The notes under the pieces are model-generated. The model searched no databases and had not been told where the DNA came from. It saw only the letters and a list, made by a program, of their open reading frames with translations. Positions 22,020 to 57,826 of a stretch of DNA of 64,000 nucleotides are shown here, in pieces; within the stretch, counting starts at the first letter, position 1, and each line of letters starts with the position of its first letter. The DNA is from Bdellovibrionota bacterium (GTDB lineage Bacteria > Bdellovibrionota_C > UBA2361 > CALJRW01). A program made the position numbers and the translations under genes. The DNA lies in contig JBGSMD010000039.1 of the NCBI GenBank assembly GCA_041740355.1, forward strand, positions 32,001 through 96,000, given 5' to 3'.

Positions 22020-23825
22020 CTATTCCTCATTCAACCTTAAAACAGCTAGAAATGCCTCCTGCGGAATCTCCACTTTACCGACACTCTTCATCCGTTTTTT
22101 ACCTTTTTTCTGCTTGTCCAACAATTTACGCTTTCGACTAATGTCACCGCCATAGCACTTTGCTGTTACATTTTTACGTAATGCTTTAACCGTACTTCGA
22201 GCAATAATCTTAGCTCCGATGGCAGCTTGGATTGCAACATCAAACATCTGTCGATCAATAATTTCTTCCAATTTTTCAGTAAGAATTTTTCCTCGGTGAA
22301 ATGCTTGATCCCGGTGAATAATAATTGATAAGGCATCAACATTTTCCCCATTAAGCTTAATATCAAGCTTAACAAGATTATCTTGGCGATAGCTCTTAAC
22401 TTCATAATCAAATGAAGCATAACCACGAGTTCGACTCTTAACACGATCATGAAAATCTAAGATTACTTCACTAAGTGGTAATTCATAAACTAAAACAGCA
22501 CGAGTCTCACCAAAAAAATCCATACTAATTTGAATTCCACGCTTTTCTTCGCAGAGTTTAATTAGATTACCTAAATATTCCTTAGGCGAGTGAATTGTAA
22601 CATGAGCAATAGGTTCTTCAATAAAATCAATATCTCCTGGATCGGGCATCTTAATCGGAGTATCGACATTAATGACTGTTCCGTCATTATGTCTTACTCG
22701 GTAAACAACACTTGGCGCCGTTGTAATTAGATCTAATAAAAATTCACGCTCTAATCGCTCTTGAATAATTTCCATGTGCAAGAGTCCGAGATATCCACAA
22801 CGAAAACCAAATCCTAAAGCAACAGAACTCTCTGGTTCAAAAGTAAAAGAGGCATCATTTAAACTAAGTTTTTCAAGCGCCGTTCTTAAGCTTTCATAAT
22901 CAGCAGCATCAATCGGAAAAAGTCCACCAAAAACCATTGGCTTAACTTCTTTATATCCAGGTAATGCTTCCACTTCAGCTTTTGCAAATGTAACGGTGTC
23001 TCCAATCTTTACATCATGTAGATCTTTGATTGAGGCTGATAAGTAACCAACTTCGCCGGAAGATAGACTAGCAACTTCTTTAGCATGCGGAGTGAACATC
23101 CCAAGTTTATAAACTTCGTATTCCGCACCGGTTTGAATAAATTTAATTTTATCACCCTTTTTGATTGCCCCATCAAAAACTCGTACTTGAATTAAGACAC
23201 CAAGATAGGAATCAAACCATGAATCATAAACTAGAGCTCTTAGTGGTGCATTAACATCCCCTCGAGTTGGAGGTGGGACTCTTTTAACAATAGCTTCCAA
23301 CATTTCTTCAATCCCGATTCCAGTTTTACCACTTACATGTAGGGCTTCACTGGCATCGATTCCGATCACATTCTCAATTTCTTCAGCAACACGATCAGGA
23401 TCCGCACTATTTAAATCAATTTTGTTAAGTGCTGGAATAATTTCTAAATTATTATCAATTGCTAAGTAAACATTGGCCAAAGTTTGCGCTTCTACACCTT
23501 GAGTAGCATCAACAACTAACAATGCTCCCTCACAGGCAGAGAGACTTCGGGAAACTTCATAACTAAAATCAACGTGCCCAGGAGTATCAATTAAGTTCAA
23601 ACGGTAAGTAATTCCATCTTTCGCTGGATAATTAATACAAACTGTTTGAGCTTTAATAGTAATCCCACGCTCTCTCTCAATATCCATTTTATCTAAAAAT
23701 TGAGATTGCATTTCCCTAGAAGTTAGCGCTTTGGTAAATTCCAAAATTCGATCAGCGAGTGTCGACTTACCATGGTCGATGTGGGCTATGATACTGAAGT
23801 TACGTATTAGTGATTTATTGTACAT
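22020..23825 (-). CDS. lepA: Elongation factor 4 (LepA)
   Basis: [42 protein letters not shown]. Confidence 0.98.
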
Positions 23826-23829
23826 ACTA

Positions 23830-23931
23830 CTAGGAAAAAAATGCTGTTTGCTCGTTTAAGCGTTTGAAATTTTTACAAAAAATTTCATCGGCAATGATAC
23901 TGAAGTTACGAATGAGACTCTTATTATACAT
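23830..23931 (-). other. 33-codon ORF that starts with a recoded copy of the first 14 LepA codons (att-like duplication)
   Basis: Translates [33 protein letters not shown]; 17-bp identity between 23894-23910 and 23788-23804. Confidence 0.8.
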
Positions 23932-24015
23932 ATGGGTACAAAACTATATTCTTGGCATTTAAAGCATTTCAAGTTAACGAGTGCGAAATGATATCACAAC
24001 TAGTAATTTAGTGTA

Positions 24016-24133
24016 AGCTTTCAAGTTTATTCGAGTTCTAGGAAGAAGGTTCTTCTCAAGCGCAGCTGTACTTGGAGTACAGCGAGCATTGAGAGGGTTC
24101 TTCTGACGTCGAAATCGGATAAAATTGAAAGCT
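24016..24133. repeat. ~118-bp TA-flanked palindromic element (family E)
   Basis: AGCTTTCAAGTTTATTCGA...TCGGATAAAATTGAAAGCT with core GCGCAGCTGTACTTGGAGTACAGCGAGCA. Confidence 0.75.
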
Positions 24134-25053
24134 TACTGATGACTGGCAAACCACTGATAAGTGTCTTGAAGTCCGGAGGCTAAATCTAATTTTGGAGACC
24201 AGCCCAGTAATTCTTTAGCTCTTGTGGAGGTAATTACACTGCGTTCCTGATCCCCTGCTCTTTGAGGCCCATAACTGGCTGGAATATTAAAGTTACCAGC
24301 TTTTATAATTTGCTGGTAAAGTTCATTTACTGAAGTTTCAATTCCAGTGCCAATATTGAAAGTATTAGTTATCCGTTGCTCTATAACAGATTCAATTGCC
24401 GAAACAACATCTAAGACATTCACATAATCTCTAGTAAATTTACCTGTGCCATTTATTGTTGGAATTTCACCACTAAGTAACTTCTTCAAAAATATTGCTA
24501 CAACTCCAGCTTCACCATGAGGATTTTGTCGAGGTCCATAAACATTAGCTAAGCGCAAAACTGCATACTTGAGTCCATAAACTCTCTGCCAAAGTGCTAA
24601 GTATTGCTCCACCACTGCTTTTGACTGACCATAAACACTTGTTGGTCGTAAAGCATGATCTTCTGGTGCAGGAAAAACATCTTGTTCTCCATATAGAGCA
24701 CCACCAGTGGAAATAAAAACAAAGAAAGGAAAATTATGTTTATCTAAGGCATTCAGTAAGTTTACAGTACCTTGCACATTGACTTTCACATCATGCAAAG
24801 GATCTTTCATGCTATCACTTACGGACATCTGAGCAGCTGTGTGAATAATAATATCTGGCTTAAAATACTTTATGGTATGAGCCGCTTCGGCATCGCAAAT
24901 ATCTTGTTGGAAAAACTGTGCCCGATCAGACAAATTATCAAGTGACCCGCTAGACAGATCGTCAATCACTGCAACTTCAAAGTTTTTTGCAACTAAACGA
25001 TCCACTACATGCGAACCAATAAACCCTGCTCCTCCAGTAACTAATGCTCTCAT
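24133..25053 (-). CDS. UDP-glucose 4-epimerase-like SDR
   Basis: [38 protein letters not shown]. Confidence 0.85.
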   Translation of the reverse strand: MRALVTGGAGFIGSHVVDRLVAKNFEVAVIDDLSSGSLDNLSDRAQFFQQDICDAEAAHTIKYFKPDIIIHTAAQMSVSDSMKDPLHDVKVNVQGTVNLLNALDKHNFPFFVFISTGGALYGEQDVFPAPEDHALRPTSVYGQSKAVVEQYLALWQRVYGLKYAVLRLANVYGPRQNPHGEAGVVAIFLKKLLSGEIPTINGTGKFTRDYVNVLDVVSAIESVIEQRITNTFNIGTGIETSVNELYQQIIKAGNFNIPASYGPQRAGDQERSVITSTRAKELLGWSPKLDLASGLQDTYQWFASHQ

Positions 25054-57606: not shown

Positions 57607-57826
57607 AGTAGAGGCGGGACAAACTCTGCGATCCTCACATTTTATATCATCTCAACTAAGCGTTTAAAATTCAGCAGAGGTCGCATTTAAAAATTGTTAA
57701 ACGCAGTTACCTTTTGTGTCGCAAGAGATTATCTTAACAAACAGTCAATTAGACTGGAGATGGAAAACAGGAGAATTTAGTACCACAAGTATTAAGAATA
57801 TTTTTCATTGATAGATAAGCTAAATA

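Follow-up and report, generated by a model that had tools for sequence, protein, structure and literature searches.

A silently recoded duplicate of the lepA start in a Bdellovibrionota genome, probably a decayed integration junction

Results

The lepA gene is preceded by a recoded copy of its own start

We analysed a 64,000-nt stretch of DNA (hereafter the window) from an uncultured member of the Bdellovibrionota (assembly GCA_041740355.1, contig JBGSMD010000039.1, positions 32,001 to 96,000), in which an intact lepA gene, encoding the translation factor EF4, lies downstream of an epimerase-like gene on the same strand (Table 1). The intergenic stretch between these two genes contains a second copy of the first 14 codons of lepA, which we refer to as the stub. 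A repeat search recovered the two copies as a direct repeat (23784-23826 versus 23890-23932) of 43 nt that is 81% identical, with a start-to-start spacing of 106 nt. Eight of the 42 coding bases differ (bases 6, 12-15, 18, 21 and 39), and all eight differences are silent, including a TCA/AGT serine switch, such that the 14 encoded residues are identical. Read codon by codon, with = for an identical codon and s for a silent difference, the stub compares to lepA as =s=ssss=====s=, with unrelated sequence beyond. The identical runs within the coding bases measure 5, 5, 2, 2, 17 and 3 nt, and the longest of these, an exact 17-nt match, is referred to below as the core. Past codon 14 the stub departs abruptly from lepA into DNA of a different kind, and its reading frame continues through 19 unrelated codons to form a 33-codon open reading frame (ORF). 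This ORF ends at a TAG (23832-23830) that is followed by a second in-frame TAG, a single T, and the lepA ATG, which places its stop 4 nt before the lepA start codon. The duplicate had been described in an earlier reading of the sequence alone (hereafter the original prediction), and that description was correct in every detail that it gave, the strand being left unstated.

To all appearances both copies have been translated. In 1,000,000 simulations of eight random substitutions in 42 nt, all 14 residues remained unchanged approximately once in a million. Because eight of eight differences are silent (P ~1e-6), we conclude that both copies descend from translated lepA starts that were selected to encode this peptide. 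For the same reason a simple recent tandem duplication with neutral divergence, which would be expected to show replacement changes, is excluded, in agreement with the argument of the original prediction. We also considered a diversity-generating retroelement, as five of the eight differences have an A in lepA; this candidate was rejected given that every change is a silent third-position or serine-family change at the start of a gene. Codon usage is not discriminating, with the codons of the stub being slightly more typical of the genome than those of lepA (sum ln f of -16.0 versus -18.3).

Independent contigs bridge both copies

Because we are dealing with a draft assembly from a metagenome, in 74 contigs, an assembly artefact that fused two strains could in principle have created the duplicate, a concern already raised with the original prediction. 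An independently built 2765-nt contig (depth 8.8) from run X1, which is possibly the source sample, covers 23300-24391 with 0 differences. From X2, a second sample of the same study, a 249-nt contig matches 23804-24052, again with 0 differences, and leads from the lepA-side copy through the spacer and the stub into the hairpin described below. Contigs from both samples thus cross the two copies. The longest exact repeat at the locus is only 17 nt, which is shorter than the word length of assemblers. Given the bridging contigs and the shortness of this repeat, we regard a strain chimera as very unlikely. The check rests on contigs and not on raw reads; no joint removing the segment between the copies was present in these contigs, from which rare variants drop out.

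The second start is confined to one genome

The sole other species of the genus among the genomes compared, G001, shares 97% LepA protein identity with the genome studied here, while 29 other genomes of the order share 70-75%. G001 has a single lepA start located 8 nt after the stop of the same epimerase-like gene, compared to 307 nt in this genome. G001 thus has one start but also lacks approximately 300 nt, versus the approximately 106 nt between the repeats. The epimerase gene is collinear with that of G001 at 76-90% nucleotide identity in 90-nt windows, and as the divergence is even over both the epimerase gene and lepA (0.76-0.90), no imported tract is visible in this flat profile. Measured from the upstream stop to the IRNF motif of LepA, the distance is at most 60 nt in 14 of the 28 order genomes with an upstream same-strand ORF, 26 nt in G001, and 325 nt here.

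We next compared the number of lepA starts in 110 lepA loci, comprising 30 from the order (including this genome) and 80 metagenomic loci among the matches listed, the latter serving only as a control set at 57-66% identity in the best segment. The 12-residue start motif occurs once in 99 of these loci and is missing from 10, where it is cut off or variant; two copies are found only here. Likewise, a degenerate DNA pattern for IRNFSIIA matched once in 70 of 124 genomes of the phylum, was not matched in 53, and matched twice in this genome alone.

The peptide encoded by the stub is characteristic of the lineage. The N-terminal residues MYNKSL are also found in G001, while 28 other relatives in the order differ ahead of IRNF. 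A degenerate pattern for the whole 14 residues found one other record (L223) among species-representative genomes and 0 matches in viral contigs. Because MYNKSL is lineage-specific, we conclude that the source of the stub was either this lineage, at the level of the genus, or an element that had adapted to it. None of 49 other lepA genes coding for the same residues contains the 17-nt core exactly, the closest having 1 mismatch and G001 having 3.

Viral contigs carry lepA stubs next to integrase genes

The 5' end of lepA has been described as a landing site for integrases. The Salmonella prophage Gifsy-1 is reported to integrate within lepA without changing its function (PMC4632033), its excision site is placed inside the first 123 bp of the gene (PMC13090387), and lepA is counted among the Salmonella integration hotspots with the highest occupancy (PMC3603311). 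A preprint on PAO1161 mentions lepA only as the neighbour of a tRNA-Lys site and was set aside as irrelevant.

To this we can add viral sequences. The IRNFSIIA pattern had 63 matches in viral contigs of IMG/VR, consisting of 29 full lepA genes, 23 stubs, 9 unrelated sequences, and 2 that are cut by contig ends. The 23 stubs depart from lepA just past the residues IIAHI. A same-strand ORF of 375-469 aa follows within about 340 nt in 22 of the 23, the remaining locus ending too early, and all eight of the ORFs that we scanned have the domains Arm-DNA-bind_3, Phage_int_M and Phage_integrase. In three viral contigs of 52-83 kb, a lepA stub is found at one end and a full lepA at the other. Pairs of stub and lepA compare codon by codon as =ss=sssss==s=== (L129/L165), ssssxss=s====== (L144/L134) and s=xx=ss==sss=== (L176/L131), where x marks a codon that is neither identical nor silently changed, and in each case unrelated sequence lies beyond. 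As the viral pairs show it, silent recoding is the normal signature of a replacement gene start carried by an element and not a peculiarity of the locus studied here. Together with the Gifsy-1 literature, these 23 stubs among 63 matches bear out the claim of the original prediction that the lepA 5' end is an integration site.

Some further viral sequences deserve mention. A near-identical lepA stub of 15 residues followed by a stop was present in nine viral contigs (L126, L132, L136, L142, L148, L164, L167, L178 and L185), with an ORF of 413 or 438 aa after each; that of L126 is a P4-like tyrosine integrase. From their sequences, these nine contigs look like members of a widespread family of lepA-targeting elements. 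When the first 40 residues of LepA were compared to phage records using tblastn, the matches were mostly host lepA, TypA or EF-G within the records. Short matches resembling the LepA N-terminus were also found near the ends of MT838853.1 (4560-4622) and KR093631.1 (Moraxella phage Mcat7; 129-209), and are possibly further att-type stubs.

A hairpin, a promoter-like site and a spacer accompany the stub

Toward lepA, the intergenic stretch is composed of a long imperfect hairpin (24136-24013), 81 nt that include a promoter-like site, the 42-nt stub, and a 64-nt spacer. The arms of the hairpin are 26 nt long and 88% complementary, and its first bases supply the TAA stop codon of the epimerase gene. 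The fold of 23826-24140 has a predicted energy of -78.8 kcal/mol (z = -6.06). The word AGTA is found at both borders of the extra DNA (24134-24137 and 23828-23831). Promoter-like sites are not enriched in the region (3, versus 2.5 +/- 2.0 in shuffled sequences), and the site upstream of the stub is thus a consensus match only.

The spacer contains, 3 nt past the 14th codon of the stub, a perfect palindrome of 9 bp around a 3-nt loop (23866-23886), and behind it three AAAC(G/A) words at 8-nt spacing (23843-23866). These might be sites for a recombinase or an accessory protein, or might have arisen by chance.

When searched across the order, the hairpin gave matches that are confined to its tip. 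A scan of 23600-24400 against Rfam gave a match over the hairpin to RF02662 that is below threshold (20.9 bits versus a gathering score of 61, E = 0.28) and was rejected. A profile search did identify a family of 126-nt hairpin repeats at 34 places in this genome (E <= 0.01). The family has conserved ends and a conserved tip, several copies have extra hairpins near the tip, and many start with TAA or TAG directly after a gene. Using a member copy as query, we found 31 matches in this genome, 1 in G001, and 0 in 29 other relatives, and from these counts we conclude that the family expanded recently in this genome. The hairpin upstream of lepA is similar to the family in architecture and length (124 versus 126 nt), its 25-nt tip lies within a 37-nt local match to the family profile, and single-copy nhmmer queries reach it at E = 0.005 and 0.009. 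The full-length profile, which includes the conserved ends, misses it at E <= 0.01, and at best it would be a diverged member of the family. A shorter, second type of hairpin, with words like those of the outer stem of the lepA-side hairpin, often adjoins the 126-nt elements, which suggests that they may form composite arrays. This hairpin family may be a more unusual object of the genome than the lepA duplicate itself.

Table 1. Features of the lepA locus and of the hairpin repeats. Positions are those of the window unless preceded by a contig label.
Feature	Position	Strand	Basis
lepA (EF4), 601 aa, intact	22020..23825	minus	open reading frame
Functional lepA 5' end, codons 1-14 (downstream repeat copy)	23784..23825	minus	repeat search and codon alignment
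Exact 17-nt core within lepA	23788..23804	minus	codon alignment
Stub, upstream copy of lepA codons 1-14 with 8 silent differences (core at 23894-23910)	23890..23931	minus	
33-codon ORF, lepA stub plus 19 unrelated codons	23830..23931	minus	open reading frame
Whole intergenic stretch, 307 nt, specific to this genome	23826..24132	minus	alignment with G001 (8 nt there)
64-nt spacer, from the 14 lepA codons of the stub to the lepA ATG	23826..23889	minus	sequence
Promoter-like TTGAAA-18-TATAGT, 10/12 consensus, ending 11 nt before the stub ATG	23943..23972	minus	
Long imperfect hairpin, 124 nt	24013..24136	minus	repeat search and fold
NAD-dependent epimerase/dehydratase-like gene, 306 aa, directly upstream	24133..25053	minus	named from sequence reading, without family search
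Hairpin family, example copies	C13:40036-40160; C51:133588-133712; C5:32845-32969		
Hairpin family, partial copy within the window	about 57656-57724 (C39:89656-89724)		
Second hairpin type beside family copies, examples	right of C5:32845-32969, C16:76338-76461, C9:35751-35903		

Discussion

A decayed junction is the favoured origin of the stub

We favour the interpretation that the stub is a junction left by site-specific recombination of the tyrosine-integrase type at the 5' end of lepA, and give it a probability of roughly 0.65. Elements that insert at the start of lepA bring a variant of its first codons with them, which keeps the gene whole when they land. Integration then produces two gene starts that specify the same peptide with different codons, share an identical crossover core, and diverge abruptly behind that core. 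With the element subsequently lost, no integrase or other gene would be left, and what persists would be a frozen relic of the sort known as a decayed element or minimal cis-mobilizable element (CIME). As the cores are separated by just 89 nt and an integrase is lacking, we take the locus to be a decayed relic and not a live element. A segment of 106 bp is probably also too short to be excised as a circle. The support for this interpretation comes from the prophages of other phyla and from the internal anatomy of the locus.

Several observations weigh against a junction. The segment between the cores holds no element genes, and the intergenic stretch as a whole (23826-24132) contains neither an integrase or excisionase nor any ORF of at least 60 aa. 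The nearest Phage_integrase (PF00589) matches lie at C39 28983-31169, approximately 23 kb away and beyond the 3' side of lepA, and none of the six Phage_integrase matches in the whole genome is located at this site. The 23 viral stubs end 2-4 codons beyond the end of the stub described here, from which it follows that their core is a different one. Clustering of the identical codons is not significant on its own: when 6 of 13 degenerate codons differ, a run of at least 5 identical ones has P = 0.11. The DNA missing in G001 is much longer than the segment between the cores, and as G001 is without the whole ~300 nt, the junction has to be supplemented by one or more additional events, or by a mechanism out of the ordinary. 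The parts of the insert that are not lepA matched only words of 14-19 nt in their own genome and nothing credible in 90 other genomes of the order. Lastly, a second lepA start was found in 0 of the 109 other lepA loci, within the flanks examined and with the metagenomic loci taken from the matches listed, and in none of the 123 other genomes of the phylum; we therefore have no direct evidence for lepA-targeting elements in this lineage.

Two of the sequences met in these searches call for a brief comment. The best match to the spacer within the order (G002, 76% over 51 nt) lies inside a long coding ORF and was taken as chance. The integrase-like sequences at C39:28983-31169, just left of the start of the window, consist of a 353-aa open frame and an 85-aa fragment, and possibly belong to an integrated element.

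The original prediction is accordingly modified in part. It had read the two copies as the attL and attR sites of an element reduced to ~90 bp, and while the anatomy of the junction agrees with this, a single integration followed by a deletion is an incomplete account of a locus at which G001 is without ~300 nt. The comparison with relatives that it had proposed gave a single 5' end in G001 and a second lepA start in none of the other phylum genomes. Judged within the phylum by its own refuting condition, under which relatives have neither an element at this site nor a conserved upstream ORF, the idea would fail.

Either start could be the native one

If the stub is a junction, two arrangements are conceivable, and we give them roughly even odds. 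In one, the order is attL, remnant, attR, with the stub being the old native start and the present lepA start having been supplied by the element. In the other, it is the functional start, together with its 5' flank, that is native, and about 300 nt of attP- or attL-type DNA were placed as an insert beside an intact site; hairpin, promoter-like site, recoded start, core and 64 nt would all have come from an element or a sister lineage. Against an element-supplied lepA start, 4 of the 6 left-arm codons that vary, two of them rare, are the same in the functional start and in G001, compared to 2 of 6 for the stub; the stub and the functional start have 1 of 6 in common. With background codon identities of 0.56 for orthologues (319/570) and 0.34 for distant lepA genes, this would amount to a weak likelihood ratio of about 4-6 by an arithmetic estimate. 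Further, the AGTAGT preceding the lepA ATG (7 nt with the A of the ATG) recurs in the junction of G001, as compared to a longest common word of 4 nt between the flank of the stub and that of G001; for random genomic 20-mers, a common word of 7 nt or more with the flank of G001 turned up in 1.8% of trials. G001 is also without the hairpin and the 81 nt. The functional start may therefore be native and the insert may lie beside an intact site.

In favour of an element-supplied start, the replacement arm of an element would itself be expected to resemble the start of the host gene, and the kinship of the hairpin with a repeat family of the genus suits a native upstream region. In addition, a 151-nt contig from a further run, X3, aligns to 24095-24243 at about 89% identity with 16 differences (23828-24091 being uncovered), which suggests that the X3 organism is a relative with DNA like the first arm of the hairpin behind the epimerase stop. 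The claim of the original prediction that lepA now uses a start derived from the element is therefore left at about even odds, with the weak evidence from codons and flank pointing the opposite way.

A rather unlikely variant, to our mind, is that the insert is a fossil attP beside an intact attB, i.e. a whole attachment region, left perhaps when an integration was aborted and repair used the synapsed partner as template, and since domesticated. Its hairpin would then act as an insulator, to be followed by a promoter, a recoded start, the core and, from the other arm, the first 64 nt. Such an insert would give lepA a promoter of its own, and the 33-codon ORF would restore the coupling of a stop next to a start by which lepA is linked to the preceding gene in relatives.

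Alternative origins without a lepA-targeting integrase

The duplicate could also have arisen without an integrase. A fragment of a sister lineage, comprising the region upstream of lepA and its first codons, could have become attached ahead of the native gene through illegitimate recombination, whether homology-facilitated or not, or through templated break repair, the AGTA words marking the joints. This would account for the one clean indel that separates this genome from G001, bordered on each side by AGTA, and for a functional start and flank that look native. The genus-specific peptide of the stub would point to a close donor, and the repeat family of the hairpin is indeed confined to the genus among the 31 genomes searched. 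It would leave unexplained why similarity to lepA stops within a few codons of the point used by integrases elsewhere, and why an exact 17-nt run found in none of the 49 other lepA genes compared is shared by the two copies. The 64 nt behind the stub are moreover not lepA, and the even identity to G001 reveals no imported tract. We consider such an import unlikely, although it deserves to be kept in mind. Still less probable is that a mobile 124-nt hairpin brought along adjoining DNA, including a lepA start, from an earlier location. The 25-nt tip and overall build of the hairpin are those of the family found at 34 genome places, this family has expanded here relative to G001, and the hairpin supplies the epimerase stop codon, all of which would be in keeping with capture. 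The family profile nevertheless has no match to this hairpin at E <= 0.01, nothing like the 81 nt, the stub or the spacer lies beside any other copy of the family, and the arrival of a lepA start next to lepA would be an unexplained coincidence.

The original prediction had offered a retained leader ORF as its own alternative. Here the start would have been duplicated in place and kept by selection, with a 33-codon leader whose N-terminus equals that of EF4 coupling translation into lepA. Purely silent divergence, a stop codon only 4 nt ahead of the lepA ATG, where lepA in this lineage often follows another ORF directly, and a promoter-like site just upstream are what would be expected of a leader. 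Neither G001 nor any other genome searched has the ORF, including the 123 of the phylum that lack a second copy, and 19 open codons behind the stub would be expected by chance about 1 time in 4 at this base composition (an arithmetic estimate). As the left arms of the two copies share only 1 of 6 variable codons, compared to 4 of 6 for lepA and its counterpart in G001, a duplication in place would have to predate the split of the species and to have been lost precisely in G001. We thus hold an origin as a leader to be distinctly improbable; the relic, whatever its origin, could still have a secondary role.

Possible consequences for lepA expression

Whichever start is native, a site-specific junction at this position would have separated lepA from the upstream gene, whereas the two are closely linked in relatives. 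Transcription of lepA now probably starts inside the insert, and the 33-codon ORF stops 4 nt short of the lepA ATG. In view of the promoter-like site and of a stop adjoining the start codon, translation of this ORF is plausible, and translation of lepA may follow it as it follows the upstream gene in relatives. If the relic does supply both a promoter and a coupling ORF, the scar of an integration event would have rewired how a conserved translation factor is expressed.

The locus extends the lepA 5' end as a landing site, known from Salmonella Gifsy-1 and the viral contigs, to an uncultured hot-spring lineage where elements of this type have not been seen. It also provides a small and clean example of how integration leaves silently recoded duplicates of gene starts, which an observer may take for tandem duplications or leader peptides. 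On present evidence, annotators should not count the 33-codon ORF as a gene. Collectively, the data presented here suggest that we are most likely dealing with a genomic scar of an ordinary type, although in a lineage of bacteria that is unusual.

Comparison with known systems

Gifsy-1 in Salmonella resembles the case described here in its target gene, in its use of the 5' end, and in leaving lepA functional. In contrast to the locus studied here, which has 89 nt between the cores, no gene, and an uncultured host, Gifsy-1 is a complete inducible prophage with an integrase. Established knowledge of intragenic att sites, and not the Gifsy-1 sequence itself, implies that this phage brings a replacement start for the gene. 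Integration inside a protein-coding gene is likewise known from phage e14 in icd of Escherichia coli, where duplication of the end of the gene preserves the length of its ORF (PMC3603311); that case concerns the 3' end and a complete element.

The described CIMEs are kilobases long. They are elements without integration and transfer genes that keep attL and attR and can be stacked by later integrations (PMC5704250). At the level of sequence, the retention of attL and attR with loss of recombination and transfer genes is what the locus would have in common with them; at about 0.1 kb it would be far smaller, and no partner element is known for it.

The most similar structures are the junctions in IMG/VR at which a lepA stub adjoins a P4-like integrase. 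These have in common with the present locus a truncated start, a left arm with silent recoding, a stretch of identity that gives way abruptly to unrelated sequence, and the order of stub upstream and full gene downstream. They differ in having an integrase ORF about 100-340 nt further on and copies that are separated by 50-80 kb of prophage, neither of which is found here, and in that the N-terminal peptides of their two copies differ, whereas at the locus described here 14 of 14 residues are identical.

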